The translations under genes were made by a program, and so were the position numbers. The notes under the pieces were generated by a model. The model was not told the origin of the DNA. It was given only the letters and a program-made list of their open reading frames with translations, and made no database searches. Below are positions 4,599 through 55,649 of a DNA stretch of 64,000 bases, piece by piece (within the stretch, counting starts at the first letter, position 1; every line of letters starts with the position of its first letter). The DNA is from a virus, in the IMG/VR virus record IMGVR_UViG_2974791491_000001, positions 5,026-69,025 of that record, one strand, 5' to 3'.

Positions 4599-4633
4599 TT
4601 CTTCCCTGTTTGTTTTCATAGATTGGATTCCCC

Positions 4634-5593: not shown

Positions 5594-5615
5594 TCCTAAG
5601 CGACCTTAGGGGGTC

Positions 5616-7951: not shown

Positions 7952-7971
7952 TCTAAGCATTAACTAAGACT

Positions 7972-8027: not shown

Positions 8028-8061
8028 TCTTCTCTACACACTTTTCGGAGGTTTCCTACCC

Positions 8062-8819: not shown

Positions 8820-9258
8820 GGTTTCCTGAAATGACCACCGTTGTTGTCGACGCTGCTACTGGTATCGCTAAGCCTGCCACCCTCATTGATGAGCTGTTGG
8901 CTGAGAAGCCCCAGCTTTTCCGTAAGGTCATCCAGTTCACTGACGATATCGCTATCCCGATTCCTACTCAGGAGCAGGCTAAGGCGATTCAGAAGGCTGA
9001 GAGCCCCGAGCAGATGGTTCGGCTGATGTTTGGTGACCAGTTCGATGCTGTTGAGAAGTACTGCGAGGGCCTGCCGGTTGGTGCCGGTGTTGTGGCTCTC
9101 GCAAAGCTGGTTGAAGCGATTAAGGATTCGCTCCCGGATATTGACCATGTGTTTGCCGAGTACGGCATTGATCGCAGTGAAGTTGAAGCGCAGTACAACG
9201 CGAAGTTGAACAAGGCTGAGTGACCCCGACTTGGGTCCAAGCGAGGGGGTAACCTGTT

Positions 9259-15756: not shown

Positions 15757-15769
15757 TTTCTTTCAAGGT

Positions 15770-15820
15770 CCACAAGAGCATGCGCGTTTTTGCCTCTGCT
15801 CTTGTGGCCTTTCAATTCTT
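15770..15820 (+). terminator. possible terminator after tape measure gene
   Basis: Stem CCACAAGAGCA / TGCTCTTGTGG with 16-nt loop, followed by moderately T-rich tract. Confidence 0.3.
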
Positions 15821-15846
15821 CTAACTCTTTGTTTGGGGGTTAAGGC

Positions 15847-43929: not shown

Positions 43930-44131
43930 TTGTTGTGCGCCGTATGGCGCTTCGCCGCCACGGACTCTGAGGAGTGGGAGGGGGTAGCCGACTACTACCG
44001 CGTGTTTCTGCGTGAGCGTGGCCGGCCCCCTTCCGTCTCCGAAATATGGGAACACCGCACTTCCCTTAAGTGTGTGCGGGAACAAACCCTTTTGGAAGGA
44101 ACACTCTTTGAGTGAATTTGACCCTGTAGCG

Positions 44132-44884
44132 ATGCCTAAGCATTACAACGGGTTTTCGTCAGGTGCTCAGCCGATTGATATTGCGCGGGACCTGACGTTC
44201 TGCGGCGGCAATATCGTCAAGTATGCGGCCCGGTCGACACGGCTCGATAACGAGCACAACAAGGGTGACCGCGTGGAAGATCTGCGCAAGGTCATCCAGT
44301 ACGCGGAGTTCGAGATTGCACGCCTTGAGGGTGAGCAGTCCCGACCTAAGCATGTGGACTACGTCCGGCAGATCCTCGACAATCTTCAACCGGGTGAGGT
44401 AGTCGTCCTAGACGACGAAGACGTGGCCGGCCCGGACGACGTTGAAGGGCATGAGGACCATGTCCACGTCGCTCCCGGCGAGTACTTCCGCGTCCTCCGC
44501 AACAACTTCGACGACAACTGGCTTGCCTACCACCCCGCCAAGGTTGGCACCGTGGTTAAGTCTGTCGTCACCGCAAATGGGGCTCACCGTTTCGAGTACT
44601 GCGGAAGCGAGCCTGAACGGACCATCTGGGTTGCCCCGGAGCACTTGGAGCCTTACACCCCGCGAGTCGGTGACAAGATCCGCATTACCCCAGTTGCGGA
44701 CGACTACCACAGCGTGAAGCGCGGCGCGATCGGTGAAATCGTGAAGGACGCAGACGAAGACGGCGACTACCTCGGATCGTTTGCTGCCACGGACTACGTC
44801 GATTACGACATATACGGGTTCACGGCCGAACCGTTCACCCAGTACCTCCGACCCGAAGACTTCGAGCCGGTGCTTGCCCCTTGA
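44132..44884 (+). CDS. DUF3310-like phage protein
   Basis: MPKHYNGFSSGAQPIDIARDLTFCGGNIVKYAAR motif common to a phage DUF family; start moved to internal ATG. Confidence 0.4.
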   Translation: MPKHYNGFSSGAQPIDIARDLTFCGGNIVKYAARSTRLDNEHNKGDRVEDLRKVIQYAEFEIARLEGEQSRPKHVDYVRQILDNLQPGEVVVLDDEDVAGPDDVEGHEDHVHVAPGEYFRVLRNNFDDNWLAYHPAKVGTVVKSVVTANGAHRFEYCGSEPERTIWVAPEHLEPYTPRVGDKIRITPVADDYHSVKRGAIGEIVKDADEDGDYLGSFAATDYVDYDIYGFTAEPFTQYLRPEDFEPVLAP

Positions 44885-45279
44885 CCCTGACCGTGTTCGT
44901 GCCCGGAGAACCAGCACCACAGGGCAGTAAGAAACACGTCGGCCGGGGAATCATGGTCGAAGCGTCAAAGAAGCTGGCCCCGTGGCGGAAACAAGTCGCT
45001 TCCGTCGTGGGGTCGGCCTACACAGGCGAACTAGTGGAAGGCCCCGTATCGGGCAGCCTCACATTCGTCATGCCGAGACCTAAGTACTTGGCTAAGAAAG
45101 CTACTCCCCTGCATATCAAGCGTCCGGACGTGGACAAGTTGACCCGCGCTGTGCTGGACGGGATCACCGGCGTCTACCTCAAGGACGACTCTCAGGCGTA
45201 CAAGCTGCTCGTTGAGAAGCGGACTGCCGAGCTTGATGAAGAACCGGGGGTGCACATAACTCTTAAGGAAACCATCTAA
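44881..45279 (+). CDS. rusA: RusA-like Holliday junction resolvase
   Basis: ..PAPQGSKKH..MPRPKYL..KRPDVDKLTRAVLDGITG.. RusA catalytic Asp-cluster pattern. Confidence 0.55.
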   Translation: MTLTVFVPGEPAPQGSKKHVGRGIMVEASKKLAPWRKQVASVVGSAYTGELVEGPVSGSLTFVMPRPKYLAKKATPLHIKRPDVDKLTRAVLDGITGVYLKDDSQAYKLLVEKRTAELDEEPGVHITLKETI

Positions 45280-45969
45280 GTGAAGTACTACGGCGGACAA
45301 GATCCGTACCCCGTGGCCGAGGATCTTCCGGACAAGTTGGACTACGAGCATCTTCGCGTGTTGTGGCATGCCCGAGAACAGCAGCGCAATGCGGTTGTGG
45401 CGTGGATGCAGACAGCGACCGCGCTCCCCGACGAAGTGCACATGGATGAGGACGTAGCCGAGAAGCTGCGCCGCGCCGCGACACGGGAGAAGCTACGGCC
45501 CGACGCGGCCGACCTGGCAGACCAGATCCCCGATGTTGTCGGCTGGCTCCGAGCCCGCATGACGATGCGCAGTCAAAGCGTGGACGACGAGGCCGGCTCA
45601 AGCTCTTCTAAGCCTGGCTCTAAGCCCCCGTTTCGGTTGGCGTACATGAGCGCTGCCGATCGTGAGGTTGCGGCCCTGGCGTACTGGTGCGCCCATTACG
45701 GCATCTATCCGAGCACGCCGATGTGGCGTGTTGATGGGCAGGTTGCCGGGGTGTTCCCGGATCACATGGGCTGCATTAACGAGATGGCTACGGCTTTGAC
45801 TGCTGCGATCAGGTCGGGGCCTTTGGCTGAGGGGATCTACACCGATCCCGAGTTCGGGTTGTGGGCTGTGCGGTCGTCGCATTATGCGGTGTGGCCTGAG
45901 CTGGCAACCATTTTCGAGCCGGAGCTTGTGGCTAAGGCCCTTCCGGAGACTCAGGAGTCATTGTTTTGA
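45280..45969 (+). CDS. hypothetical protein
   Basis: 229 aa. Confidence 0.35.
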   Translation: MKYYGGQDPYPVAEDLPDKLDYEHLRVLWHAREQQRNAVVAWMQTATALPDEVHMDEDVAEKLRRAATREKLRPDAADLADQIPDVVGWLRARMTMRSQSVDDEAGSSSSKPGSKPPFRLAYMSAADREVAALAYWCAHYGIYPSTPMWRVDGQVAGVFPDHMGCINEMATALTAAIRSGPLAEGIYTDPEFGLWAVRSSHYAVWPELATIFEPELVAKALPETQESLF

Positions 45970-46313
45970 AACTGCGTGTCGAGTATGAAATTCCGGAGGA
46001 TCAGCACGAGCGGGTGCGGTTGCAGGCGAAGCTTTCGGAGCTGGATTCGTTGCTGTCGTGGGTGGAGCCGTGGAAGCGGACTATCAGCCTGATTGACGAC
46101 AGCCCACTACCGGCTTGCGCGACCGAGATGAAGCGTAGGCACCCGGAGCCGATTTGCGGTAGCTGTCGTGAGCCGATCCAGGCAACCGAATGGTGGGGTT
46201 ACCACCAACGCTTGCACTCGTACGTGCACCTGAACGCCCCCTGCTGGCACAACCTGTACGGGGAGGACGTCAGCGGCCACACCATGATGCTCGGTTCGGG
46301 GGTGCCCGCGTGA
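45966..46313 (+). CDS. hypothetical Cys-rich protein
   Basis: 115 aa, CGSCREP..CWHN. Confidence 0.3.
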   Translation: MKLRVEYEIPEDQHERVRLQAKLSELDSLLSWVEPWKRTISLIDDSPLPACATEMKRRHPEPICGSCREPIQATEWWGYHQRLHSYVHLNAPCWHNLYGEDVSGHTMMLGSGVPA

Positions 46314-47242
46314 CATTCCTAGTTGCTATGCGGGGCCTTCCCGGATCAGGCAAGACCACCCGTGCCCGCGAGATAGCTAAGGAGACCGGGGCTGTCGTTG
46401 TCGGCCGCGACTTCGAGCGGTTCCAGATGTTTGGGGAGTGGTGGACCGGCAAGAACGAGCATGAAAATGCCGTGACAGTTGCGCTCAACGCTAAGGTCCG
46501 GGCGCTGCTTAAGGACGATCAATCCGTGGTCGTCGATAACACCCACGTTCAGCTTCGCCTCCTCAAAGCCTGGGCCAAGATTGCGTCCGAATGTGGAGCC
46601 ACCTTCCACGTCGAGGACGTCAAGACGCCAGTCGAAACCTGCTTGTACCGGGACATGCAGCGGCAAGCCAACGGCGAGCGCTGGGTTGGTGAAGACGTCA
46701 TCAACCGGATGGCTAAGCAGATCAATTGGGGGCAGATTAAGCCGGTCCCGCCGATCATTGTTGAGCCTCTGCGCTACCAGGAAACCCCCTGGGACGCCGA
46801 TGCCGCGATCATTGTCGACATCGACGGCACCCTCGCTCACATGCGGGAGGTCAACGGCACGGTTCGTAGCCCGTACGACTACAGCCGTGTTCACGAGGAC
46901 GCGGCCGATCCGACCATCGTCAGCATTGTCTACGACTACAAGAACGCGCTGAACGGCACAGTAATCGTCTGCTCTGGCCGGGACGACGACTGCCGAGACG
47001 TTACCGAACAGTGGTTGAAGAGCCACAGTATCCCGTTCGACATGCTGCTGATGCGACCAGAGGATGCGCGGGACGCGAACGGCAACAAACTCCCGGACTG
47101 GATCGTTAAGTACAACCTGTTCAACGAGCACATTCGCGGCCAGTACGCGATCGACTATGTGCTCGATGACCGCAACCAGGTTGTGAACATGTGGCGAGCG
47201 CTCGGGCTTAAGTGCCTGCAAGTTCAGCCGGGAGACTTCTGA
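46310..47242 (+). CDS. pnkp: polynucleotide kinase-phosphatase (P-loop kinase + HAD phosphatase)
   Basis: GTG 46310 (GTGA overlap). Walker A GLPGSGKTT; C-terminal IIVDIDGTLAH (DxDGT HAD motif). Confidence 0.6.
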   Translation: MTFLVAMRGLPGSGKTTRAREIAKETGAVVVGRDFERFQMFGEWWTGKNEHENAVTVALNAKVRALLKDDQSVVVDNTHVQLRLLKAWAKIASECGATFHVEDVKTPVETCLYRDMQRQANGERWVGEDVINRMAKQINWGQIKPVPPIIVEPLRYQETPWDADAAIIVDIDGTLAHMREVNGTVRSPYDYSRVHEDAADPTIVSIVYDYKNALNGTVIVCSGRDDDCRDVTEQWLKSHSIPFDMLLMRPEDARDANGNKLPDWIVKYNLFNEHIRGQYAIDYVLDDRNQVVNMWRALGLKCLQVQPGDF

Positions 47243-47514
47243 TGGCCGAACCGAATGTCATCGAACTCAAGTCCGAAAGCGGAAAGGTCATCACCTTCCT
47301 GCACCCTTTCGAGCCGGGTGAAGCCGAAATGGTTTTGTCCGAGCTGAAAACACTTCGGGGCGGGTTTGACCAGATGATTGACGACCTCGAAAAGCGGGTC
47401 GAGAAGCTGCGCGTGGAAGGGCTCATGGAGCCGAGCGTTGTTGTCTCACTCGATGAATACCGGGCACGTAAGGCCGCTAAGGCGAGTGCTCTTGAACCTA
47501 AGGATATTGGTTGA
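47242..47514 (+). CDS. hypothetical protein
   Basis: ATGA-coupled to pnkp; 90 aa. Confidence 0.35.
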   Translation: MAEPNVIELKSESGKVITFLHPFEPGEAEMVLSELKTLRGGFDQMIDDLEKRVEKLRVEGLMEPSVVVSLDEYRARKAAKASALEPKDIG

Positions 47515-48818
47515 TTCTCGACGCACCTAAGAACAATAACTATGCCGTGACCGTTGTGCGTGTCCCGGCTACCTACGATCTGGATGGCTTGGACAACCTG
47601 GTGGGTGTCAAGGTGTTCAATTCGCAGATCCTCACTCAGCGTGACGGGGTGGAGCCGGGTGAGCTTCGCCTGTACTTCCCGGCCGAGGTCCAGATTTCGC
47701 CCGAGTACGCCGAGTACAACAGCCTGTACAGCGGTGGCGCTGGCCGCAATCGTGACCCGGAAGCCAAGGGCTACCTGGCTAAGAACCGCCGCGTGCGGGC
47801 AATCAAGCTGCGCGGTCACCGTTCGGATGCGCTGCTGATGCCGCTCGACTCGCTCAAGTGCTTCACTGGCCGCTACGACTACCTGCAAGAGGGCGACACG
47901 TTCGACGTGATCGAGGGTCACGAGGTTGTCCGCAAGTACGAGCTTCCCCGCAATGAGCCCAAGGCCGGCGCAACCAAGCTCGCTAAGGTCCTTAAGCGGG
48001 TGGACAAGGCCCTGTTCCCTGAGCATCTGTCGACCGACAACTTCTTCCGCAACTCGCACCTGATCGACGAGAAGCGTGAGGTGGTCATCACCCAGAAGTT
48101 GCACGGCACGAGCATCCGTGTCGGCCGTGTTCCGGTTCGCCGCGAGAAGGGCCGCTGGGAACGTTTCCTCAACAGCCTGGGCGCGGCTAGCCCGGACTTT
48201 GCTCACGAGCCGGTGTTCGGCTCCCGCAAGGTCATCAAGGAGGCCGACAACAGTCGCCAGAACCACTACTACGGTTCGGACATTTGGACCCGGAAGGGCG
48301 CGGAGATTGTCGCGGACATTCCGGACGGCTTCATTGTCTACGGCGAACTGATCGGTTGGACCGAGGACGGTTCGCCGTTGCAGAAGGGCTACACCTACGA
48401 CGTGCCTAAGGGGCAGTCGGAGTTGTACGTGTACCGGGTTGCGCGGATCGACGTCAACCGGACGCTCACGGATCTGCCTTGGGATGGCGTTAAGCAGTTC
48501 TGCAAGGAACGCGGCTGGAAGTATGTTCCGGAGATTTACCGGATTATCCCCGAGGATGAGGTCGACTACGTAGGCGTTGACCTGGATCACCACGTCACGA
48601 CGCTGATGGACGTGCGTTACGCCGACGAGTTCAGGAACCTTCAAGGGGTTACAGACAAGATGGTCCCCCTTTCGGACGCTAAGACTGTCGATGAAGGTGT
48701 GTGCATCCGTCAGGACGCAATTACCCCGGTCATTCTCAAGGCTAAGTCCCCTAAGTTCTTGCAGCACGAGACCAAGCAGCTCGATAAGGGCGAAGTCGAC
48801 TTGGAGAGCGCAGCCTAG
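47511..48818 (+). CDS. ATP-dependent RNA ligase-like nucleotidyltransferase (Rnl5/DraRnl-like)
   Basis: Candidate motif I ITQKLHGTS (Lys ~197 after ~190 aa N-domain), ..IVYGELIGW.., motif V-like VILKAKSPKF. Confidence 0.45.
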   Translation: MILDAPKNNNYAVTVVRVPATYDLDGLDNLVGVKVFNSQILTQRDGVEPGELRLYFPAEVQISPEYAEYNSLYSGGAGRNRDPEAKGYLAKNRRVRAIKLRGHRSDALLMPLDSLKCFTGRYDYLQEGDTFDVIEGHEVVRKYELPRNEPKAGATKLAKVLKRVDKALFPEHLSTDNFFRNSHLIDEKREVVITQKLHGTSIRVGRVPVRREKGRWERFLNSLGAASPDFAHEPVFGSRKVIKEADNSRQNHYYGSDIWTRKGAEIVADIPDGFIVYGELIGWTEDGSPLQKGYTYDVPKGQSELYVYRVARIDVNRTLTDLPWDGVKQFCKERGWKYVPEIYRIIPEDEVDYVGVDLDHHVTTLMDVRYADEFRNLQGVTDKMVPLSDAKTVDEGVCIRQDAITPVILKAKSPKFLQHETKQLDKGEVDLESAA

Positions 48819-49009
48819 TGCAGAACGGGCAAACGCAGTGTTACGTGGCATTCCCCGGCCACCAATTTGACGTGGAATCCTTGCGCTTCGCATACGACCA
48901 CCTGATTGGCATGGGAGTTCCGCGCACCCGAAAACTGACCATCGAATCCGTCCCCAAAGTGGGAGACGAGAAGTGCGATGGGATCGCATTTGTGGAGGTA
49001 GTTCCGTGA
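48818..49009 (+). CDS. hypothetical small protein
   Basis: 63 aa, GTG start overlapping TAG. Confidence 0.25.
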   Translation: MQNGQTQCYVAFPGHQFDVESLRFAYDHLIGMGVPRTRKLTIESVPKVGDEKCDGIAFVEVVP

Positions 49010-49848
49010 CCGTTCACCTGTGGGCGCAAAGCCTCGACGACAAAGAGCTACACCCCGTTCACCCATTCCAGTTCCCTGGCGGCGAATGGCACATCACCCT
49101 CGGTGAACCGTTCGACCAGAGCCGCGACTACCAGTGGATCGCCAACGTTCAAGGTGCTAGTGCCGAAGACCTCGTGGTGGCAACCCTGCTAGCGGACATT
49201 GCGATGGACCGTGGTGAGGACTCGACACTGCTCATCCCCTACCTGCCTGCTGCACGGGCAGACCGGGGTGTCCCCCTTGGGCTTAGCGTGTACGGCGGCA
49301 TCATCAACGCCGCATGCTTCACCGAGGTAGTCACGCTCGATGCGCACAACCCTAAGGCTGCGGTGCGGGAAGTGAGTGGGCTCGTCAACCTGTCTCCCAC
49401 GCCTTTGGTGACCGCGACCATCCAGTATCACGACACGTTCACCGGGGTTATCGCCCCGGACGCGGGTGCTCGTCAACGCGCCGCCGACGTGGCTACCTCA
49501 CTCGGTGTGCCCCTGGTGGTGGCCGACAAGGAGCGGGACTTCGCCACCGGCCAGATCATGGGCCTGACGGTCCCGGACCTCGACCGGCTGGGTAACTACC
49601 TGGTGGTCGATGACATTTGTGACGGCGGCGGCACCTTCATGGCTCTCGCTAGTGCCACGAACCTGCCGCAAGACCGGCTGTCCCTGTGGGTCACGCACGG
49701 CATCTTCTCGGGTAACGCGGCCAACCTGCTCAAGCACTACTACAAGGCCGTCTACACCACCGACTCTCACCCCGGTTCGGGGCAGCTCGGCATGTGGACG
49801 GTCAAAACCCCCACGTGGGCATACATGTACAGAAAGGTCCAAGCATGA
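49006..49848 (+). CDS. ribose-phosphate pyrophosphokinase (PRPP synthetase)-like protein
   Basis: GTG 49006 with GGAGG 8 nt upstream; PRTase/PRPP-binding loop NYLVVDDICDGGGTF. Confidence 0.55.
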   Translation: MTVHLWAQSLDDKELHPVHPFQFPGGEWHITLGEPFDQSRDYQWIANVQGASAEDLVVATLLADIAMDRGEDSTLLIPYLPAARADRGVPLGLSVYGGIINAACFTEVVTLDAHNPKAAVREVSGLVNLSPTPLVTATIQYHDTFTGVIAPDAGARQRAADVATSLGVPLVVADKERDFATGQIMGLTVPDLDRLGNYLVVDDICDGGGTFMALASATNLPQDRLSLWVTHGIFSGNAANLLKHYYKAVYTTDSHPGSGQLGMWTVKTPTWAYMYRKVQA

Positions 49849-51326
49849 CCAAGTTCGCACCCGTAGCAGCGCTCTTCCAGACCGACGCCTACAAGCTCGG
49901 GCACGTTCAGCAGTACCAGTTGGCCGGCGAGGTCACTAAGGTCTACTCGAATTACACCAACCGTAAGAGCCGGCTGCCCGGTGTCGACAAGGTTGTGCAC
50001 TTCGGATTGCAGGCGTTCATCCAGAAGAACCTTGTGGAGGCTTTCGAGCCGTTCTTCGCGGCCGACGAAGACCTGGTGTGCAACCTGTACGAGGAGCGGG
50101 TTGAGCAGATCCTTGGCCCGAACACCATCGGGTCGGATCACATTCGGGCATTGCACCGTAAGGGCTATCTGCCGCTGCGGTTCTGCGGCCTGCCGGAAGG
50201 CACTGAGGTTCCGATCAAGGTTCCGTCGTTCACGGTCGAGAACACCGAGGATGAGTTCTTCTGGCTGACCAACTACATCGAGACGGCGCTTAGCGCTGGT
50301 GTATGGCAGGCATCCACGTCCGCCACGATTGCCCGCCAGTACCGGAAGATCCTCGACGAGGCCGCGCTTAACACTGGCGCTTACCCGTTGGCTGTCGACT
50401 TCCAGTGCCACGACTTCTCTTACCGGGGAATGAGTTCCAATGAATCTGCCCAAGCCTCGGGTGCGGCGCACCTCCTATCGTTTAGTGGGACGGACTCTCT
50501 GGTCGCTCTCGATTGGATTGACCGCTACTACGGAGGTTCGGATTACGTTGCGGCGTCAGTCCCGGCGACAGAGCACTCCGTCATGTGCACCGGCATTGAA
50601 GCCGTCGGAGAGCTTGAGCTCTTTTCGCGCCTACTTGACCTCTACCCGTCGGGAATTGTCTCCGTCGTTTCGGACACCTTCGACCTATGGACGGTCCTGA
50701 CCGAGTTTCTGCCTGCACTTAAGGACAAGATCCTGGCGCGTGACGGCAAGCTGGTGATCCGTCCGGACTCGGGCGACCCGGAGACCATCATCTGCGGAGA
50801 CCCGGATGCCGAGGCAGGGTCCGCCGCCTGGTTTGGTGTCGTCCGGCTGCTTCGGATGGCTTTTGGTTGCACCTGGAATGAGGCCGGCTACCGCGAGTTG
50901 AACTCGCATGTGGGGGTCATCTACGGCGACTCCATCACCCTCGAACGCGCTAAGAGCATCACGGCGCGACTCGAATCTATGGGTTACGCATCCACCAACG
51001 TTGTGTTTGGTGTCGGCTCATACACCTACCAGCACAACACCCGCGACACGTTCGGCTCCGCGATGAAGGCCACATGGGCTGAGGTCGACGGTGACGGCGT
51101 CAACCTGCTTAAGGACCCGATCACTGATGACGGCACTAAGAAGTCGGCTACGGGGCGTCTGGCGGTCGTCAACAGCGAGTACGGCGGAGACCTCAAGCTC
51201 ATCGAACGAGCAACCCCCGAAGCCGAGCAGTGGAGCCTCCTCAAGCCCATCTGGGAAAACGGACAGTTCGTACAGCGAGTTACCTTCGCCGATGTACGGC
51301 GCACCCTGGCTAACGCGGGGGCTTGA
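49845..51326 (+). CDS. nicotinamide phosphoribosyltransferase (NAMPT/NadV)-like protein
   Basis: N-terminal ..FQTDAYKLGHVQQYQ.. and central ..CHDFSYRGMSS.. (DFGxRG-like) motifs; ATGA overlap with the upstream gene. Confidence 0.6.
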   Translation: MTKFAPVAALFQTDAYKLGHVQQYQLAGEVTKVYSNYTNRKSRLPGVDKVVHFGLQAFIQKNLVEAFEPFFAADEDLVCNLYEERVEQILGPNTIGSDHIRALHRKGYLPLRFCGLPEGTEVPIKVPSFTVENTEDEFFWLTNYIETALSAGVWQASTSATIARQYRKILDEAALNTGAYPLAVDFQCHDFSYRGMSSNESAQASGAAHLLSFSGTDSLVALDWIDRYYGGSDYVAASVPATEHSVMCTGIEAVGELELFSRLLDLYPSGIVSVVSDTFDLWTVLTEFLPALKDKILARDGKLVIRPDSGDPETIICGDPDAEAGSAAWFGVVRLLRMAFGCTWNEAGYRELNSHVGVIYGDSITLERAKSITARLESMGYASTNVVFGVGSYTYQHNTRDTFGSAMKATWAEVDGDGVNLLKDPITDDGTKKSATGRLAVVNSEYGGDLKLIERATPEAEQWSLLKPIWENGQFVQRVTFADVRRTLANAGA

Positions 51327-51327
51327 G

Positions 51328-51636
51328 TTGGCTGACGGTAGCTGGTGGGCCTTGGAGAATCCGGGCCAATACTCCATCGGGGCAATCAAGCACCACCACA
51401 TACCTGGCGAAACGATGTATCACTGGGGTTCGGACGCTATTGACTACCTTAGGGTTCCGAAATCCCTGACGCTCATCGAGCTAACCAACGACCGGACAAC
51501 GACCGCGCTCACCGCCCACACCGACCCGGAAACTAACGAGAGTGTCGTCCTGGCGTACGGCAAAGGGAAGCTTAAAGAGCTAAGCGTCTACCTCGAACAG
51601 AAGCCGGACGCTTTCTCGTGGCGGAAGATTCACTAA
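51328..51636 (+). CDS. hypothetical protein
   Basis: TTG 51328 or ATG 51415; good GC3. Confidence 0.3.
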   Translation: MADGSWWALENPGQYSIGAIKHHHIPGETMYHWGSDAIDYLRVPKSLTLIELTNDRTTTALTAHTDPETNESVVLAYGKGKLKELSVYLEQKPDAFSWRKIH

Positions 51637-51682
51637 GGGAGGTCACCTGAACAACAAGCAGCTCGCGCAAGACAACCTCGTC

Positions 51683-52426
51683 ATGCTCGGCGTTGCCGGT
51701 TCCCAGCTCTACGGGACACAGCTCGACAACGGCGACAACGACCAAATGGGGGTGGCAATCGAGCCCCCAAGCCACGTCATCGGGCTAAGCCAATTCGAGC
51801 AATGGCAGTACCACAGTGCAGGCAACGGCGTCAGGTCCGGAAGCGAAGACCTCGACGTCACCGTGTACTCGCTACGGAAGTGGACCCGGCTAGCGGAACA
51901 GGGCAACCCCACCGTTCTGCTGCTCGGGTTCACCCCCGATGAACTTATCCTCAAGGACTCGTTCTGGGGTATGCAGCTCCGCGCCAGCATGGACATGTTT
52001 ATCTCCCAGCAGGCCGGCTCAAGGTTCCTCGGCTACCTCGACTCCCAGCGGAAGCAGATGCTCGGGCTTACCGGCCGCAAGCACTCCAACCGCCCGGAGT
52101 TGGTTGAGCAGTACGGCTACGACACCAAGTTTGCCTACCACGCCGTAAGGCTCGGCATGCAGGGTGTGGAGTACCTGACCACCGGCCACATGGAACTGCC
52201 CATGAAGCAGGAGTACCGCGACTACCTCATTGACATTCGGCAGGGCCGGGAGTCGAAAGAGGACGTGGTGACGGTTATCAACCTGTACATCGACTTGCTG
52301 CGCAAGCTTAAGCATTCGCCGGATCTGCCGCCTCGGGCTAACCGGGTGGAGATTGATGCGTGGCTTGAGGTCATGTACGAAACGTTCTGGTCGTCGCAGG
52401 GGCGGACGCTCCCCCATGTGGCTTGA
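51683..52426 (+). CDS. minimal nucleotidyltransferase (pol-beta superfamily)
   Basis: ..LGVAGSQLYGTQLDNGDNDQMGV.. GS-x9-DxD signature near N-terminus. Confidence 0.45.
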   Translation: MLGVAGSQLYGTQLDNGDNDQMGVAIEPPSHVIGLSQFEQWQYHSAGNGVRSGSEDLDVTVYSLRKWTRLAEQGNPTVLLLGFTPDELILKDSFWGMQLRASMDMFISQQAGSRFLGYLDSQRKQMLGLTGRKHSNRPELVEQYGYDTKFAYHAVRLGMQGVEYLTTGHMELPMKQEYRDYLIDIRQGRESKEDVVTVINLYIDLLRKLKHSPDLPPRANRVEIDAWLEVMYETFWSSQGRTLPHVA

Positions 52427-52670
52427 CGAGGATTCTGCGGTCAAGTACGTGGGCAGGTCCCGTAGGACTCTGCGCTGGTGGTACCAGATGGGTTTGGTGC
52501 AGCGACGGAAGCACAAAGGGTACTGGCAGTACGAATCCGAAACCCTAGCTGCCGCCAAGGCTAGGCAGGAACACAACTCTGCTACACAGAGGATCGTTCC
52601 GGGCCTTGGTGGTGAGCGGGGCCGGCGTGGTTTCAGGCAACGAGCCCACGGCATGGACCCCTTGTTTTGA
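52416..52670 (+). CDS. small HTH (MerR/excisionase-like) protein
   Basis: ..SAVKYVGRSRRTLRWWYQMGLV.. winged-helix-like. Confidence 0.35.
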   Translation: MWLDEDSAVKYVGRSRRTLRWWYQMGLVQRRKHKGYWQYESETLAAAKARQEHNSATQRIVPGLGGERGRRGFRQRAHGMDPLF

Positions 52671-52739
52671 GGATGGGGGGCGCTGCCAAGTGGTGAGTAA
52701 TCTTTATGGTGTGAATGGTTGATGAACCGTTTGCATCTT

Positions 52740-52811
52740 TCCCGTATAGCTTAATTGGCAGAGCGTCCGGTTGTTACCCGGATGGTCCAGGTTCGATTCC
52801 TGGTGCGGGAG
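52740..52811 (+). tRNA. tRNA-Asn (GTT)
   Basis: Hand-folded cloverleaf: acceptor TCCCGTA/TGCGGGA, anticodon arm TCCGG-TTGTTAC-CCGGA, T-arm CCAGG-TTCGATT-CCTGG. Confidence 0.7.
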
Positions 52812-52927
52812 CTTAGAGTAGATTGTTTCGGCTCCGTTTCGTAGAACACTCAGACGTCAATCCAAACGGGCAGCACTCGAAATCACTTACCCATGTGGGT
52901 GTCACTGGTTCATCGTTCGGGTGATCT

Positions 52928-52998
52928 GGGGCGATAGTTCAGTGGTAGAACGGCGGTCTCCAAAGCCGCTCGCCGGGGTTCGATTCCTCGTCGCCTCG
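52928..52998 (+). tRNA. tRNA-Trp (CCA)
   Basis: Acceptor GGGGCGA/TCGCCTC, D-arm GTTC-AGTGGTA-GAAC, anticodon loop CTCCAAA, T-loop TTCGATT. Confidence 0.7.
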
Positions 52999-53030
52999 CC
53001 GCGCTTGGCTGTGCGCGTAAACAGCTATCT

Positions 53031-53103
53031 GCCTTAGAAACCGAATTGGCTAGGTGCCTGACTTCCAATCAGGATTTTGCGGGTTCAAGTCCCGTCTAAG
53101 GCT
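53031..53103 (+). tRNA. tRNA-Gly (TCC)
   Basis: Perfect acceptor GCCTTAG/CTAAGGC, anticodon arm CCTGA-CTTCCAA-TCAGG, T-arm GCGGG-TTCAAGT-CCCGT; short D-stem. Confidence 0.6.
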
Positions 53104-53196
53104 CAATGGGACGCCAGAGATAAACGCTGGTGCGGTAGAAGCTGACCCGATTCAGAAACCCGCCGATTCCCGATCACCGATGGCTGCCGGTATATG

Positions 53197-53272
53197 CAGT
53201 TTCTAACTCTCCGTAGCTCAGTTGGTCTTAGAGCAGGGCACTCTTAATGCCCGGGTCGCAGGTTCGAGTCCT
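53197..53272 (+). tRNA. tRNA-Lys (CTT)
   Basis: Acceptor CTCTCCG/CGGGGAG, D-arm GCTC-AGTTGGTCTTA-GAGC, anticodon arm GGGCA-CTCTTAA-TGCCC, T-loop TTCGAGT. Confidence 0.7.
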
Positions 53273-53345
53273 GCCGGGGAGACGTAGTGGGAGACGGGGG
53301 TTCGATTCCCTCCATGCGCGCTGTAGCTTAATGGTAGAGCACCCA
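53273..53345 (+). ncRNA. tRNA-like fragments (3'-half-like T-arm/acceptor piece followed by 5'-half-like acceptor/D-arm piece)
   Basis: GGGAGACGGGGGTTCGATTCCCTCCA then GCGCTGTAGCTTAATGGTAGAGCA; no complete cloverleaf can be folded. Confidence 0.3.
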
Positions 53346-53528
53346 CGCTTTGCAAATATGTTCCGGATGGCCCGCTCAAGGGATACGGCGCATAGAGCTA
53401 AGAGGTTGTAAGCCCGCAAAGCCCAACCCTTAGTCTCCGCAGGTTCGCCACCGAACTACCTGCGTTATCAAAACCCACGTGAATTGAGGCCGAAGGGCTG
53501 GTGGGCCTTAGTTGGAAGGGTGGACCCA

Positions 53529-53611
53529 AGGGCTTATGGCGGAATTGGCAGACGCGCCGGATTCAAAATCCGGTACTCATTGAGTGTGTGGGTTCGAGTC
53601 CCACTAAGCCC
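53529..53611 (+). tRNA. tRNA-Leu (CAA), long variable arm
   Basis: Acceptor GGGCTTA/TAAGCCC, anticodon arm CCGGA-TTCAAAA-TCCGG, 14-nt variable arm, T-arm GTGGG-TTCGAGT-CCCAC. Confidence 0.65.
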
Positions 53612-53613
53612 AC

Positions 53614-53826
53614 ATGGAAAACACTGACATTCACAATCGGTTCGCCTTCCACCCGGCCACCACGGCTGAAAAGAAGGGCGCTCACGGCAGTATCCGCGAG
53701 ACCATGCTGTCGACCGCGCTCTACGTGAACGCTAACGTTCCGGACGGCCGCGAAAAGTCACTGGCTATCACTGCTCTCGAAGAGGCGATGTTCTGGGCTA
53801 ACGCGGCCATCGCACGAGTGGTCTAG
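53614..53826 (+). CDS. hypothetical small protein
   Basis: 70 aa, starts 3 nt after tRNA-Leu. Confidence 0.3.
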   Translation: MENTDIHNRFAFHPATTAEKKGAHGSIRETMLSTALYVNANVPDGREKSLAITALEEAMFWANAAIARVV

Positions 53827-54065
53827 TGGCAATCGTTCTGGGGGTCGGCGATGTCGACAAGATCACCGATCCCGGACACCTGGAAGCGCTCAGACGCCTC
53901 GAAATGATCGCCGCCTACACGCTTGCGGTTGACGATCCGGACTACGAGGCGCGTGACGTGAACGCTATGGCACTTAGCGGTGCGTGGGCGACTCCCGCGT
54001 ACCAACCATCCGAAATTGGCTCCAAGGCTGGAAAGAAGCTGCGGGCCATGTATTCCAAGAAGTAG
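53826..54065 (+). CDS. hypothetical small protein
   Basis: GTG start overlapping TAGTG. Confidence 0.3.
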   Translation: MAIVLGVGDVDKITDPGHLEALRRLEMIAAYTLAVDDPDYEARDVNAMALSGAWATPAYQPSEIGSKAGKKLRAMYSKK

Positions 54066-54074
54066 GAGAATCCT

Positions 54075-54467
54075 TTGGGTTTCCGTGATCTGTTTACTCC
54101 CCGCACCAAGCGTCAGAAGAAGGCTAAGGGCAAGGGTGAGCAGTTGGGCCGCGCGATCGGCGAACTGAGCGTGAGCGCTCAGGACTTCACCGTATCTCGG
54201 CTTGACACCATCACTCCCCGTACCTACGGCAAGAGCCCGGTCTCTTCGGTTCCGGCTGTCAAGACTCGTCCTGCGATCCAGCCTCGGCCGGCCGCTAAGC
54301 CTCGTAGCTACGACCGACCCAGTTACTCGGGCTATGACGACAGCTCTGCTGCGATCAGTGCTGCTACTGCTGTTGCGGTGTCGTCCAGCTACTCGTCGCC
54401 TTCGTACAGCTCGTGCGATTCCAGCTCGTCTAGCTCGTTCTCGTCCGATGCGGGCTGCTCGTTCTGA
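54075..54467 (+). CDS. hypothetical protein with Ser-rich C-terminus
   Basis: TTG start with GGAG RBS; basic N-terminus, SSYSSPSYSSCDSSSSSSFSS tail. Confidence 0.35.
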   Translation: MGFRDLFTPRTKRQKKAKGKGEQLGRAIGELSVSAQDFTVSRLDTITPRTYGKSPVSSVPAVKTRPAIQPRPAAKPRSYDRPSYSGYDDSSAAISAATAVAVSSSYSSPSYSSCDSSSSSSFSSDAGCSF

Positions 54468-54640
54468 TGTTTGAAGCCATCATCGCGGCTTTCTTCATCA
54501 CCCTACTCGTGGGGTTGTTCGTGGGCTTCGTCTACTGGATGCTCAATCCGCCGTCCTGGGTTGGCGGTGGCGGAACCTATAAGGGCGGGTTCGATCTGAG
54601 TTCGCCGCAAGGTGTTGCCCTACTGGTGGCCGCAACGTGA
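54467..54640 (+). CDS. small membrane protein (below ORF-track threshold)
   Basis: ATGA overlap; MFEAIIAAFFITLLVGLFVGFVYWML.. single TM; a second 33-aa TM peptide may follow (54637-54738). Confidence 0.3.
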   Translation: MFEAIIAAFFITLLVGLFVGFVYWMLNPPSWVGGGGTYKGGFDLSSPQGVALLVAAT

Positions 54641-54781
54641 TAACGACCATCCTCGGCGGGATCGGCGCTATCGCGCTTCTGTATGTGCTCGGTTACATAC
54701 TCATCGGGGCTTGGTGCCTTTGGAGCCTAGGTCGATGATCTATTGGGTTTGGTCACGTTCCCTCATCTAAACGTGACGCTA

Positions 54782-54863
54782 CTAGGTGATGCTCCAATGG
54801 CGGGGCAGCGGGCTGTAACCCCGTGGCGTTATACGCAGGCAGGTTCGATCCCTGTCACCTAGA
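54782..54863 (+). tRNA. tRNA-Tyr (GTA), long variable arm
   Basis: Perfect acceptor CTAGGTG/CACCTAG, anticodon arm GCGGG-CTGTAAC-CCCGT, variable arm, T-arm GCAGG-TTCGATC-CCTGT. Confidence 0.6.
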
Positions 54864-55101
54864 CAATTCACCTTCTTCTACGGGAGACCAACCTAACTCT
54901 GCTCCGTCAGGGGGAAGGTGACCTACCACGCGCCACGGACTGTCACACGCTGATGGTCCGTGGCGCTCTTTTTGTCTAAGAGAGGCTAAGCCATTCAAGG
55001 CGAACAGCTTGTAGACGGGCGCTGTGTGCGTTCGGAGCTTCTACCCGAACAGTGCTGGTGCAAACACCACCGAAACCTTGAGGAAGTGCAGGTAACAATC
55101 C

Positions 55102-55434
55102 TTGACTGAGCCGAACGATTACACCGAGCATTACGGCTATACCCTCGTCGCTGAGGTTGAAGCGTACGAATGCTATAGCTGGGACAATGCGGGGGTCTTC
55201 TACGATCCCGACCACAATGCTTACCGTGTGGCTGCTGATGGCGGTTGTTCGTGTAACTACCCGTGGGATCGGAAGGACACCATTTCTGAGTGCCCGCCTG
55301 TTGGTTTGGCTGAGGCTATTCAGCAGTTCCGTAAGGCCGCTAAGGACCTGTTCCATCCGGCTAGTTACGAAACAATCGAGGAAGAGCTTCGGGGCCTACG
55401 TGCACACGCCAAGAAGGTTGGTGCCCGCCCGTGA
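55102..55434 (+). CDS. hypothetical protein
   Basis: 110 aa. Confidence 0.3.
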   Translation: MTEPNDYTEHYGYTLVAEVEAYECYSWDNAGVFYDPDHNAYRVAADGGCSCNYPWDRKDTISECPPVGLAEAIQQFRKAAKDLFHPASYETIEEELRGLRAHAKKVGARP

Positions 55435-55649
55435 CCCATCTCGAAACTAAGGCCACCTACAACGATCCCGATGGCGAGTTCGAGGATGACCTCCGCTTGG
55501 AGCTGCTTAACAAGTATCTCCTGCAAGGATACGACTCTACCCAACTCTACTTCGAGGATTTCACCGGCCATTTCATCAATGGCGTGTTTACGCGGACTGA
55601 TAACCCGGAGTCTGGGTTCACGGTCATTAAGGTGTCGCTGATCCCATGA
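55431..55649 (+). CDS. hypothetical protein
   Basis: 72 aa, GTGA overlap. Confidence 0.3.
   Translation: MTHLETKATYNDPDGEFEDDLRLELLNKYLLQGYDSTQLYFEDFTGHFINGVFTRTDNPESGFTVIKVSLIP

Follow-up and report, generated by a model that had tools for sequence, protein, structure and literature searches.

NARP1-type NAD+ reconstitution genes nested in an RNA-repair set of Gordonia phage Kudefre: a probable counter-defence island of known modules

Gene content and packing of the Kudefre block

The window analysed here, a 64,000-nucleotide stretch of viral DNA, matches Gordonia phage Kudefre (NC_060136.1/OK040786.1), a known temperate soil phage, at 100% identity; window coordinates equal those of the Kudefre record minus 5025. 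The block of interest comprises genes 88–96 (Table 1), and its enzymes had all been annotated in GenBank beforehand. Every motif quoted in the initial annotation was found in place and in the predicted frame. Seven co-oriented, translationally coupled genes had been described; the start-to-stop overlaps were seen, but nine ORFs are annotated (gp88–gp96). Junctions along the block measure −4, −1, −4, −1, −4, −4, +1, +46 and −11 nt, making translational coupling plausible. This packing does not distinguish the block. It extends upstream through gp86/gp87/gp88, and genes 42 to 129 form an 88-gene co-oriented run of ~36.7 kb on the + strand, so that co-orientation and coupling are a genome-wide habit of Kudefre.

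The GC profile is flat (0.55–0.65), with no sign of recent foreign insertion. DnaB, SSB and RusA are annotated upstream, and ThyX, RNR, NrdH and Mre11 downstream. A consensus scan for transcription signals gave no sigma70-like promoter within the block. A strong terminator-like hairpin appeared only 3' of tRNA-Tyr and possibly marks the 3' boundary of the transcription unit.

Table 1. Features of the Kudefre block and its downstream flank (window coordinates).
Feature	Coordinates	Strand	Basis or remark
gp88, T4-type Pnkp (5'-kinase/3'-phosphatase)	46310..47242	+	Pfam, PHROG, PDB, motifs
gp89, 90-aa orphan ORF, Pnkp-ligase interval	47242..47514	+	no Pfam or PHROG match
gp90, predicted Rnl5-type ATP-dependent RNA ligase	47511..48818	+	Pfam, PHROG, AF2 + Foldseek
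gp91, 63-aa orphan ORF, upstream of Adps	48818..49009	+	no family match
gp92, Adps (PRPP-synthetase-like ADP-ribose pyrophosphokinase, first NARP1 enzyme)	49006..49848	+	clade listing, motifs
gp93, Namat (Nampt-like nicotinamide ADP-ribose transferase, second NARP1 enzyme)	49845..51326	+	clade listing, PDB, motifs
gp94, 102-aa ORFan, Namat-RlaP interval	51328..51636	+	no Pfam match
gp95, RlaP	51683..52426	+	PF10127, phrog_388, GS-x10-DxD
gp96, 84-aa putative DNA-binding protein	52416..52670	+	11-nt overlap with RlaP
Five tRNA genes: Asn(GTT), Trp(CCA), Gly(TCC), Lys(CTT), Leu(CAA)	52740..53613	+	ARAGORN + record annotation
gp102, 70-aa Acb2/Tad1-hairpin-domain protein	53614..53826	+	PF24729; 'hypothetical' in GenBank
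tRNA-Tyr(GTA)	54782..54864	+	ARAGORN
Terminator-like hairpin	54930..54966	+	16-bp stem, 10 G-C pairs, then TCTTTTTGTC; consensus scan, pattern match only

The small ORFs at 47242, 48818 and 51328 had been proposed as parts of a composite locus. They proved to be lineage-restricted orphans, not conserved partners. Homologues of gp89, which is not a conserved module member, occur in Octobienvirus loci only, and those of gp91 only in Octobienvirus phages and Rabbitrun; gp94 has just two cluster homologues (Sephiroth/Kudefre and Octobien14) among 5.8 billion proteins. No Macro or RyR domain was found in any of the three. The terminal gp96 matched phrog_20602 ('DNA binding protein', E=7e-7), gave weak MerR-type HTH matches (E=0.02) and is kept 3' of RlaP in Trax and Rabbitrun (~36% identity).

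The first tRNA gene lies 69 nt past the last block ORF (ARAGORN), and there are six tRNA genes altogether. Downstream, gp102 matched PF24729 (E=7.6e-20; 71 bits versus a cut-off of 27), which is present in all 593 of its homologues. PDB matches were to 9ptq ('Acb2 homolog 43', E=2e-4) and Tad1 (E=0.012), and AF2 predicts a helical hairpin (pLDDT 87). As a candidate sponge, gp102 may sequester immune signals of the cyclic-nucleotide or gcADPR type.

RNA-repair and NAD+ enzymes

Family or fold membership was established for the block enzymes, together with conservation of catalytic and specificity motifs. gp88 combines an N-terminal P-loop kinase with a C-terminal HAD phosphatase (GLPGSGKTT at 46334, DIDGTLAH at 46817). 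It matched PF25109 HAD_PNKP (E=4.7e-46), AAA_33 (E=6.3e-23) and phrog_505 (E=5e-97), and over its full length Pnkp1 (4xrp, E=6.4e-38) and T4 Pnkp (1ltq, E=1.4e-22). The ORF at 47511 (gp90), initially read as ligase-like, falls within the ligase superfamily, with matches to PF09414 (E=4.8e-13), the PF21189 OB domain and phrog_968 (E=2e-107). Its OB domain is N-terminal and precedes the nucleotidyltransferase domain, with motif I at K196-LHG (KLHGTS at 48096; ILKAK at 48732); K196, H198 and G199 are invariant across 28 homologues. In a Foldseek search with the AF2 model (pLDDT 82), Naegleria gruberi RNA ligase took the first 13 places (~420 aligned columns, E=2.4e-14 to 1.6e-12), ahead of T4 Rnl2 and TbREL1. 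By predicted fold, gp90 would be an Rnl5-type (NgrRnl-like) RNA ligase.

gp95 had been taken for an uncharacterised nucleotidyltransferase. It matched PF10127 (E=1.6e-27, profile positions 25–244 of 249) and phrog_388 (E=2e-58), and its N-terminus carries AGSQLYGTQLDNGDND, consistent with the Pol-beta signature. It is thus an RlaP, of a described RNA-repair family that adds 1–2 NMP to the RNA 3'-OH of damaged ends and prefers damaged RNA over DNA (PMC12776372). gp95 therefore belongs to the repair module and is not a third element.

The genes at 49006 and 49845 are not an ordinary PRTase pair but the NARP1 enzymes Adps and Namat, an option raised in the initial annotation. Osterman et al. 2024 place gp92 in the Adps clade (OK040786_00081, supplementary table) and list gp93 as an 'Adps-associated' Namat (OK040786_00082). 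gp92 scored below every NCBIfam Prs cut-off (92 bits versus the 113-bit Prs subfamily cut-off) and is 30–31% identical to the Adps enzymes of Bas63 and ICP1, both validated (E=3e-29 and 7e-25). It carries VVDDICDGGGTF at 49603, retains the Adps PP-loop DDICD and catalytic Lys, and keeps the ICP1 Adps residues R87, H121, D161, K185, D212, D213, I214, C215, D216 and F221 (structural rules from PMC13586617). gp93 carries TDAYKLGHVQQY at 49881 and DFSYRG at 50412. Its top PDB matches were 9w5x/9w5w (E=1.9e-138, 465 bits versus 213 bits for the best canonical Nampt), whose N-terminus agrees with the SPbetaL1 Namat cloning primer. The Namat selectivity-clamp motif GSYTYQHNTRD (PMC12774641) and an R40 equivalent are present.

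Linkage of NARP1 and RNA repair across phages

In Kudefre, NARP1 is nested in a heal/fill/seal RNA-repair set, between ligase and RlaP, and the recurrence of such neighbourhoods was established in other phages. Among 66 dereplicated IMG/VR loci, drawn from the top 80 hits of a Kudefre-type query and phylogenetically non-independent, 26 (about 39%) have an RNA-repair-type gene ≤10 kb from NARP1. Counts for control genes over the same distance were 11 for DnaB, 5 for ThyX and 4 for RNR-beta; the repair and control HMMs were built in this analysis and are of unequal sensitivity, and the linkage statistics are rough. Seen from the ligase, NARP1 lies ≤10 kb away in 13–14 of 43 Rnl lineages and RlaP in 11, with Pnkp as the dominant partner (34/43). 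DnaB is found at this distance in 15 lineages, and part of the proximity might come from a general location among early genes, given the position of the block in the replication/nucleotide-metabolism arm.

Actinophages show at least six distinct gene orders with NARP1 and RNA repair co-localised. In a cluster-L-type arrangement, Namat adjoins Pnkp (66–336 bp) and the ligase lies ~4–5 kb off. Low-GC contigs carry non-orthologous repair enzymes (Rnl1, Thg1, CCA-adding) beside or inside NARP1, and Thg1 sits between Adps and Namat in two loci (L158 and L161). Co-localisation is thus recurrent, and the interleaving is tighter than simple island clustering requires. Its occurrence in many unrelated phages is a modestly new observation. 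The modules are also separable, since NARP1 occurs without RNA repair nearby in Bantam (ligase ~60 kb away), OneUp and BrutonGaster, and Pnkp plus Rnl without NARP1 in ~30 loci.

This separability would suit chance mosaic adjacency, actinophage genomes being mosaics, in which the modules landed together in a Deeyouvirinae ancestor and were co-inherited without selection for linkage. The order Pnkp-Rnl-Adps-Namat-RlaP is indeed restricted to Deeyouvirinae, and the Kudefre Adps is 67% identical to that of Bantam versus 52% for Trax, which belongs to the same subfamily as Kudefre, indicating module exchange. We nevertheless consider chance unlikely: the linkage reappears in the multiple gene orders and, with non-orthologous enzymes, in low-GC phages, 21 of the 26 linked loci have the repair gene within 2.5 kb, and repair genes are more frequent near NARP1 than much commoner control genes.

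Proposed function of the block

The block is probably a cluster of known, mutually independent counter-defence modules that are co-expressed within the Kudefre early/replication arm. With the activities, target systems and co-transcription that we infer, gp88 Pnkp would convert the ends made by host anticodon nucleases or toxin RNases from 2',3'-cyclic-phosphate/5'-OH to 3'-OH/5'-phosphate. Where the nuclease had trimmed a base as well, gp95 RlaP would restore 1–2 nucleotides to the 3'-OH, and the gp90 ligase would reseal the break using ATP. Adps would form ADPR-PP from ADP-ribose and ATP, and Namat would combine this with nicotinamide, so that the pair rebuilds NAD+ from the products of NADase effectors (Thoeris ThsA, DSR, SIR2-type). 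We also infer counter-defence roles in the same co-oriented run for the six tRNA genes, which may provide replacement tRNAs, and for gp102, which may be a small Acb2/Tad1-type sponge-like protein (anti-Thoeris/CBASS-type). The modules would act in parallel against different host attacks, and their clustering would stem from shared regulation and joint transfer of accessory anti-immunity genes rather than from a common reaction pathway. To our knowledge, the Rnl5 enzymes characterised to date seal nicks in duplex RNA, which counts against this reading.

A biochemically coupled pathway, with RNA repair and NAD+ reconstitution sharing intermediates, is improbable. The Pnkp HAD phosphatase might also dephosphorylate ADPR-1''-phosphate or open ADPR cyclic phosphates, standing in functionally for the Macro-domain Adpp of NARP1-AP and supplying Adps under RES-type NAD+ phosphorolysis. 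Alternatively, NARP1 might refill the NAD+ consumed, or use the ADPR released, by an RNA-end-processing step. Coupling would fit the Namat–Pnkp adjacency, the Thg1 genes within NARP1 and the link between NAD+ and RNA repair established in the literature via KptA/Tpt1 and Poa1p. It would also fit the extended NARP1 operons on record, in which a dedicated enzyme, the phosphatase Adpp or the glycosidase RyDEP, is added. Kudefre has neither: unlike in NARP1-AP, no Macro-domain Adpp was found in the small ORFs, flanks scanned or annotation, nor a RyDEP homologue in the window. However, T4-type Pnkp produces 2'-OH/3'-OH ends without NAD+, the kinase P-loop of gp88 is intact and the protein resembles T4 Pnkp and Pnkp1 over its full length, and the dominant partner of Pnkp is the ligase. 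The flanks scanned and the Kudefre annotation contain no KptA/Tpt1, 2H or Macro gene, and neither an NAD-using RNA-end enzyme nor an ADPR-processing domain turned up in these or in the small ORFs. NARP1 works alone in SPbetaL1, Fado and Bas63, and the modules occur apart in many phages.

Very improbable is a housekeeping role, in which the pair boosts NAD+/PRPP for replication, Pnkp, ligase and nucleotidyltransferase process ends in replication or recombination, and the genes are co-located because the region is a nucleotide-metabolism and replication arm: the flanking genes, the GenBank names of the pair ('pyrophosphate kinase / nicotinate ribosyltransferase'), its reading as NAD scavenging in earlier mycobacteriophage papers and some Nampt-like activity of Namat with PRPP in vitro (PMC12774641) agree with it, but gp92 falls under every curated Prs cut-off and has an Adps-type donor loop, gp93 has the selectivity clamp for ADPR-PP, the NMN adenylyltransferase needed for NMN to NAD+ is not annotated in the Kudefre genome, validated homologues act in counter-defence, RlaP favours damaged RNA over DNA (PMC12776372), and Omega and Cjw1 Pnkp have been characterised as RNA-repair-type enzymes.

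Parallel counter-defence modules remain the favoured reading. The gene identities and the anti-immunity island of the initial annotation hold, the latter in agreement with NARP1/RNA-repair co-localisation in many lineages and an Acb2/Tad1-like gene shortly downstream; the uncharacterised nucleotidyltransferase and the small-ORF partners do not, and nothing was seen that points to a combined function beyond parallel action. The Kudefre block is probably a counter-defence island, a new example built from known modules.

Layout of the Kudefre locus

The 6.36-kb block matches Gordonia phage Kudefre (NC_060136.1/OK040786.1; Deeyouvirinae, Octobienvirus; host Gordonia terrae 3612) at 100% identity and there comprises genes 88–96 (gp88–gp96); window coordinates equal Kudefre record coordinates minus 5025. 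Kudefre is a temperate phage whose genome encodes an integrase and immunity repressor. Five genes of the block already carry GenBank/RefSeq names: polynucleotide kinase; RNA ligase; pyrophosphate kinase or ribose-phosphate pyrophosphokinase; nicotinate ribosyltransferase or nicotinamide phosphoribosyltransferase; and nucleotidyltransferase. The gene identifications of the initial annotation proved essentially right on family, fold and motif evidence, and all motifs that it quoted were found in frame where it had placed them. Nine ORFs are present, where seven genes had been counted.

Overlapping or abutting ORFs in a single orientation were also seen as described, with junctions of -4, -1, -4, -1, -4, -4, +1, +46 and -11 nt in order. 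This arrangement is not distinctive. The packing extends upstream, and Kudefre genes 42–129 (~36.7 kb, 88 consecutive genes) all lie on the + strand with overlapping packing common to the run. Co-orientation and coupling of the block are therefore weakly informative by themselves, and were rejected as evidence for an operon. GC and skew profiles showed flat composition and no foreign-insertion signal. tRNA genes do follow directly downstream, as had been stated; there are six, the first of them 69 nt past gp96. The tRNA-Trp(CCA) seen here is found in nearly every tRNA cluster adjoining ligase loci of the IMG/VR comparison set (L007, L023, L038, L040, L048, L075 and L090), where tRNA-Lys(CTT), Leu(CAA) and Tyr(GTA) are further recurrent members.

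The small gene gp102 gave PDB sequence matches to an Acb2 homologue (9ptq, E=2e-4) and to Tad1 (E=0.012), and PF24729 was present in 593/593 of its homologues. An AF2 model (pLDDT 87) returned no significant Foldseek match, a 70-aa helical hairpin being an uninformative query. Its family makes gp102 a candidate sponge for signals of CBASS or Thoeris, and the gene shares one co-oriented run with NARP1, the Adps–Namat pair that rebuilds NAD+ from ADPR and nicotinamide. The hairpin past tRNA-Tyr is the only convincing terminator-like element in 44000–55500 and may mark the end of a transcription unit containing the block. A sigma-70-type promoter scan of the same interval found no site; the sigma-70 consensus is uninformative for an actinobacterial host. 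Given gp102, this hairpin and the lack of a sigma-70-like promoter in between, the functional neighbourhood is best drawn to include RNA repair, NARP1, the tRNAs and the sponge-like gene. Two neighbours lie outside it. The RefSeq name of gp84 is doubtful because only its first ~65–95 residues match DUF3310 and, over that same portion, several PHROG families named 'nucleotide kinase'; the other ~160 residues are without a match. gp107 belongs to a DUF family.

Features of the Kudefre window and of comparison loci from IMG/VR
Feature	Record	Position (nt)	Strand	Description
gp84	window	44108-44884	+	RefSeq 'nucleotide kinase'
gp88-gp96	window	46310-52670	+	RNA-repair genes and NARP1
Functional neighbourhood	window	46310-54966		as best drawn
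gp92	window	49006-49848	+	predicted Adps
gp93 clamp	window	51015-51047	+	residues 391-401, GSYTYQHNTRD; consensus GSxPhi-xPhi-xPhi-TRD
tRNA-Trp(CCA)	window	52928-53000
gp102	window	53614-53826	+	70 aa, directly 3' of tRNA-Leu, annotated "hypothetical"; PF24729 Acb2/Tad1 hairpin domain, E=7.6e-20
Terminator-like hairpin	window	54930-54966	+	16-bp stem then T-run, just past tRNA-Tyr
gp107	window	55102-55434	+	just beyond the hairpin; DUF7574, E=1.5e-32
Trax gene 94	L003 (Trax)	10686-12284		annotated Ro-like (TROVE) RNA-binding protein
NARP1 with RyDEP	L038 (DyoEdafos)	2909-6698		RyDEP (138 aa, H75 and D117 present) between Adps and Namat, then Pnkp directly
NARP1 with HAD_PNKP	L110 (GC 0.61 contig)	5655-8461		R2K-clade ATP-grasp and HAD_PNKP phosphatase upstream of Adps-Namat, RlaP downstream
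NARP1 with repair genes	L138 (GC 0.29 contig)	9086-13829		contiguous Adps, Namat, calcineurin-like phosphoesterase, Rnl5-type ligase (OB + RNA_ligase), P-loop kinase
NARP1 with repair genes	L143 (130.8-kb low-GC contig)	5600-16300		CCA-adding enzyme, calcineurin-like phosphoesterase (metallophosphatase), Thg1, Adps, Namat, RlaP, RlaP, T4 Rnl1-type ligase
Thg1	L143	8343-9023		abuts Adps
Thg1	L158	8084-9022		between Adps and Namat
Thg1	L161	8942-9784		between Adps and Namat

Predicted RNA-repair enzymes and NARP1 pair

gp88 carries the kinase motif GLPGSGKTT at residue 9, fitting GxxGxGK[ST] (AAA_33, E=6.3e-23, residues 4–137), and a C-terminal HAD phosphatase domain with DIDGT at residue 170 (PF25109 HAD_PNKP, E=4.7e-46, profile positions 2–143 of 143). 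It aligns end to end with the solved Pnkp1 (4xrp, E=6.4e-38, query residues 4–310) and T4 Pnkp (1ltq, E=1.4e-22, 5–310). gp88 is a full-length T4-type Pnkp, with predicted 5'-kinase and 3'-phosphatase activities on RNA ends. The homologous Pnkp enzymes of mycobacteriophages Omega and Cjw1 have been characterized (Zhu, Yin and Shuman 2004, as cited in PMC3706429). Orthologues of gp88 and of the ligase gp90 occur at ~50–57% identity in Omega, Cjw1 and clusters E, J and L. The Pnkp and ligase genes are unlinked in cluster J, whereas Kudefre has them side by side, together with RlaP and NARP1.

gp90 matched Pfam RNA_ligase (PF09414, E=4.8e-13), and its motif I (KxxG), K196-L-H-G, was invariant across 28 homologues. 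An N-terminal OB match (PF21189, PHA02142 OB-fold, residues 13–112, E=1.3e-4) lies under the gathering score. PDB searches by sequence, with a single query or an 8-sequence profile, gave nothing useful, and the structure was therefore predicted and searched by fold. The AF2 model from the 28 homologues (pLDDT 82) has a beta-rich N-domain and matched RNA ligases with Foldseek probability 1.00. The top 13 matches were all to Naegleria gruberi RNA ligase (E=2.4e-14 to 1.6e-12, ~420 aligned columns over both domains), followed by T4 Rnl2, TbREL1 and archaeal Rnl3. The Naegleria gruberi enzyme, which carries its OB domain at the N-terminus, is the prototype of Rnl5. gp90 fell below the DraRnl equivalog TIGR02306 (25.8 bits against a cut-off of 151), which places it in a divergent clade with Rnl5 fold and architecture and not in the equivalog itself. 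On this modelled fold, gp90 is a predicted ATP-dependent RNA ligase of a divergent clade, which would seal RNA nicks with 3'-OH/5'-PO4 ends. The placement agrees with Iyer et al., in whose analysis actinophage ligases fall outside Rnl1 and Rnl2.

The nucleotidyltransferase gp95, which the initial annotation called uncharacterised, is a member of the RlaP family. It matched PF10127 over nearly its full length (E=1.6e-27, 97 bits against a cut-off of 23, profile positions 25–244 of 249), and its N-terminus carries AGS-x10-DND, the Pol-beta GS...DxD signature; a PDB sequence search gave no solved-structure match. A role in RNA repair is predicted. The gene is found 2.9 kb downstream of gp90 within one co-oriented run, an arrangement kept in Octobien14, Trax and Rabbitrun. 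RlaP takes its family name from association with RNA ligases, and adds 1–2 NMP to the 3'-OH of damaged RNA, an activity demonstrated with the Pseudomonas enzymes only; the family has been put forward as an antidote to nucleases such as RloC that additionally trim a base (PMC12776372). Pnkp, RlaP and ligase would thus form one heal, fill and seal set. Since the nucleotidyltransferase is RlaP, NARP1 is inserted inside a three-enzyme RNA-repair set. In Trax, an annotated Ro-like RNA-quality-control gene lies ~1 kb downstream of RlaP; the corresponding Kudefre stretch does not contain it.

Known systems share parts of this arrangement. The heal-and-seal logic by which T4 Pnkp and Rnl1 answer the PrrC anticodon nuclease is common to Kudefre, in which gp88 is the full-length T4 Pnkp homologue, and T4 also has an RlaP (NrdC.11). 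Unlike in T4, the Kudefre repair genes are contiguous, and the ligase is Rnl5-type (NgrRnl/DraRnl-like) with an N-terminal OB domain where T4 has Rnl1. RlaP operons described previously include RtcB-RlaP-RtcA of Pseudomonas and RlaP with 5'-phosphate ligases (Burroughs and Aravind 2016, as cited in PMC12776372), and jumbo phages have RNA-repair operons containing RlaP (PMC7824862). As in Kudefre, a PF10127 enzyme there shares a gene run with an RNA ligase and an end-healing enzyme; in Kudefre, the ligase partner is Rnl5-type and the NARP1 pair stands between it and RlaP.

gp92 scored below every NCBIfam Prs cut-off (92 bits against 113). It is 30–31% identical to validated Adps proteins (Bas63, E=3e-29, 101 bits; ICP1, E=7e-25, 90 bits) and reached only 50 bits against the best PDB Prs. 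At 280 aa it is similar in length to ICP1 Adps and without the C-terminal Prs regulatory helices. Residues R84, H114, D152, K175 and D202–D206 correspond to the ICP1 acceptor residues R87/H121/D161, catalytic K185 and PP loop D212-D213-I-C-D216. The adenine-stacking F18 and F92 of ICP1 were not alignable in gp92 and vary among validated Adps proteins too. gp93, which overlaps gp92 by 4 nt, had its best PDB matches in 9w5x/9w5w (E=1.9e-138, 465 bits), the N-terminus of which corresponds to the SPbetaL1 Namat cloning primer; canonical Nampts scored ~213 bits. In the phmmer alignment to 9w5x it is identical to SPbetaL1 at catalytic F189, D215 and R306, and an Arg aligns with the SCL arginine R40. 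Clamp position 7, aromatic and adenine-stacking in the structural paper (PMC12774641), is His in gp93. His or Met recurs there in many Adps-linked homologues, making the published consensus looser than stated. No NMN adenylyltransferase (Nmnat) is annotated across the Kudefre genome.

[quoted passage not shown] For precisely these two genes, the NARP1 assignment is already in print: Osterman et al. 2024, in supplementary tables, place OK040786_00081 in the Adps clade and OK040786_00082 among Adps-associated Namats. Like the NARP1 systems of SPbetaL1, Fado, Bas63 and ICP1 (Osterman et al. 2024; structures in PMC12774641 and PMC13586617), the Kudefre pair is a two-gene coupled Adps-Namat, with the PP-loop DDICD, the catalytic Lys, the GSxTxQxNTRD clamp and the R40 equivalent in common. 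It differs in Adps sequence (~30% identity), in having His and not Tyr/Phe at clamp position 7, and in its location, flanked by an RNA ligase and RlaP. Adps of Kudefre shares 67% identity with its counterpart in Bantam (L005), an unrelated phage, but only 52% with the one in Trax, a relative in the same subfamily, while the flanking Pnkp, Rnl and RlaP are 61–70% identical to Trax. This discordance suggests that a NARP1 cassette was exchanged within a conserved RNA-repair frame.

The small ORFs had been proposed as further island components, which their distribution does not bear out. gp89 (90 aa), gp91 (63 aa) and gp94 (102 aa) had no Pfam or PHROG family match and are limited to Octobienvirus, gp91 occurring additionally in Rabbitrun. 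gp94 has two cluster relatives only among 5.8 billion proteins and was rejected as a conserved partner, being an ORFan of three phages; gp89 and gp91 are similarly restricted. gp96, tentatively a DNA-binding protein from its sequence, keeps its position 3' of RlaP in related phages. Two NARP1 accessories have been published, the Macro phosphatase Adpp (NARP1-AP, bioRxiv 10.64898/2026.01.28.702374) and, in the DyoEdafos NARP1 operon, the RyR-domain glycosidase RyDEP (bioRxiv 10.64898/2026.05.28.727677). No Macro or RyR domain was found in gp89, gp91, gp94 or gp96 at E<=1, and no RyDEP homologue in any window ORF at E<=10, and the small ORFs were rejected as accessories of either kind. Extended NARP1 operons recruited RyDEP or Adpp, whereas Kudefre has neither a RyR- nor a Macro-domain gene, and its extra ORFs gp91 and gp94 are orphans. 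KptA/Tpt1, 2H and Nudix genes, any of which could connect RNA repair with NAD+, were likewise absent from the scanned flanks and from the Kudefre annotation, as were Macro genes.

Association of NARP1 with RNA-repair genes across phages

IMG/VR loci with 10-kb flanks, 75 anchored on the ligase and 80 on Namat, were compared using HMMs built for this analysis. Across actinophage loci, NARP1 and repair genes occur in at least six gene orders: Pnkp-Rnl-Adps-Namat-RlaP in Deeyouvirinae; Adps-(RyDEP)-Namat-Pnkp with Rnl ~4 kb away in cluster-L mycobacteriophages, including Tourach and DyoEdafos, and in many prophage-like contigs; Rnl-Adps-Namat; Pnkp-Rnl-Adps-Namat; and looser versions of these. 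Dereplication at 70% ligase identity left 43 ligase-anchored lineages, non-independent and drawn from the best matches to Kudefre-type queries, with Pnkp within 10 kb in 34/43, NARP1 in 13–14/43, RlaP in 11/43 and DnaB in 15/43. The Namat-anchored set, chosen in the same way and dereplicated at 80% Namat identity, gave 66 loci, of which 26 have an RNA-repair-type gene within 10 kb and 21 have one within 2.5 kb. Control genes, detected with HMMs seeded from one phage only, were found within 10 kb in 11 (DnaB), 5 (ThyX) and 4 (RNR-beta) of these 66. Among Namats <65% identical to that of Kudefre, a repair gene lay within 10 kb in 16/55 and within 2.5 kb in 11/55. tRNA clusters were present within 10 kb in 14/32 sampled loci.

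The two modules are separable. NARP1 is without nearby repair genes in Bantam, OneUp and BrutonGaster, and Pnkp with Rnl occurs without NARP1 in ~30 loci. Both modules also favour larger genomes. The linkage is accordingly suggestive and not proven, given the choice of sample, the non-independence of lineages, the one-phage controls and the genome-size bias.

On low-GC contigs, the repair enzymes beside NARP1 are non-orthologous to those of Kudefre (L143 and L138 in the table). In L143 they build an elaborate island of tRNA repair around NARP1. The L138 locus presents a Kudefre-like theme with a non-homologous phosphatase. Thg1 is a tRNA 5'-end repair enzyme and 3'-5' polymerase. Its gene abuts Adps in L143, and in two further loci (L158 and L161) this RNA-repair enzyme is nested inside the NARP1 operon itself. 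DyoEdafos has its RNA ligase ~3.3 kb beyond Pnkp, followed by 12 tRNA genes, an RNA-repair association as in Kudefre; in the available portion of the RyDEP paper, only the NARP1 link is discussed (bioRxiv 10.64898/2026.05.28.727677).

Proposed parallel or coupled counter-defence

Parallel counter-defence is the best-supported reading of the Kudefre block. The comparisons above establish family membership and conserved motifs; activities, targets and co-transcription are inferred. Pnkp, RlaP and the Rnl5-type ligase would repair RNA cut by host nucleases, while Adps and Namat would regenerate NAD+ from ADPR and nicotinamide once NADase effectors fire. The phage tRNAs may stand in for depleted host tRNAs, as has been argued for mycobacteriophages (PMC10264068), and gp102 may sequester immune signals.

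The most interesting alternative is a coupled pathway, in which for example the Pnkp phosphatase substitutes for Adpp on ADPR-1''-phosphate. The tight adjacency of Namat and Pnkp in cluster-L phages and the Thg1 genes nested in NARP1 hint in this direction, but the Pnkp kinase domain is intact, Pnkp is linked dominantly to ligase, and the autonomy of NARP1 is proven. Relevant to this hypothesis is the HAD_PNKP protein of L110, which is stand-alone (246 aa) with no kinase-domain match. In a fuller version, NARP1 would be a regular, functionally integrated part of phage tRNA/RNA-repair islands whose repair enzymes double as NARP1 accessories: the Pnkp HAD phosphatase would convert ADPR-1''-phosphate or ADPR cyclic phosphate to ADPR, replacing the Macro-domain Adpp non-homologously, and NARP1-nested Thg1 would act in a related role. 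We consider this version very improbable. Its premise is that host defences common in Actinobacteria, and beyond them, may link the breakdown of NAD+ to RNA damage, possible examples being RES/MbcT-type NAD+ phosphorylases beside VapC-type RNases, and NAD+-dependent RNA-end modification.

Read as parallel counter-defence, the Kudefre locus provides a new instance of a phage counter-defence island. The undescribed combined function put forward at first is hypothetical; the components are known, and NARP1 had already been catalogued for this phage. Pnkp and ligase RNA repair alongside phage tRNAs has been proposed in mycobacteriophages since 2004–2013 (PMC3706429). The Prs/Nampt pair was reported in 2013 in Thibault, Myrna and cluster L (PMC3706429) and reinterpreted as NARP1 in 2024 (Osterman et al. 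2024). Both the RlaP-ligase partnership and a conceptual link between NAD+ and RNA repair via KptA and sirtuins are likewise described. With each module textbook or recently published, the locus itself adds little. Literature searches pairing NARP1 or NAMPT/Prs with RNA ligase, Pnk or RNA repair found no paper that reports recurrent interleaving, an absence that is not proof; in Pope 2013 (PMC3706429) and the Tyrovirus paper, the genes are listed close to each other and their proximity is not remarked upon.

Only two points are modestly new: that NARP1 and RNA-repair genes are recurrently interleaved, and that an unannotated Acb2/Tad1-like gene is present. The locus contributes this gene, in the same run, and a corrected architecture in which the nucleotidyltransferase is RlaP and NARP1 sits within the three-enzyme set. 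The comparison contributes the interleaving of NARP1 with RNA/tRNA-repair genes in many unrelated phages with non-orthologous repair enzymes. If the linkage holds genome-wide, RNA-repair neighbourhoods would guide searches for NAD+-related counter-defence genes, and NARP1 neighbourhoods searches for RNA-repair genes. It would, in addition, point to NAD+ depletion and RNA cleavage being commonly deployed together by hosts, a question for which Kudefre and DyoEdafos would be tractable actinophage models.
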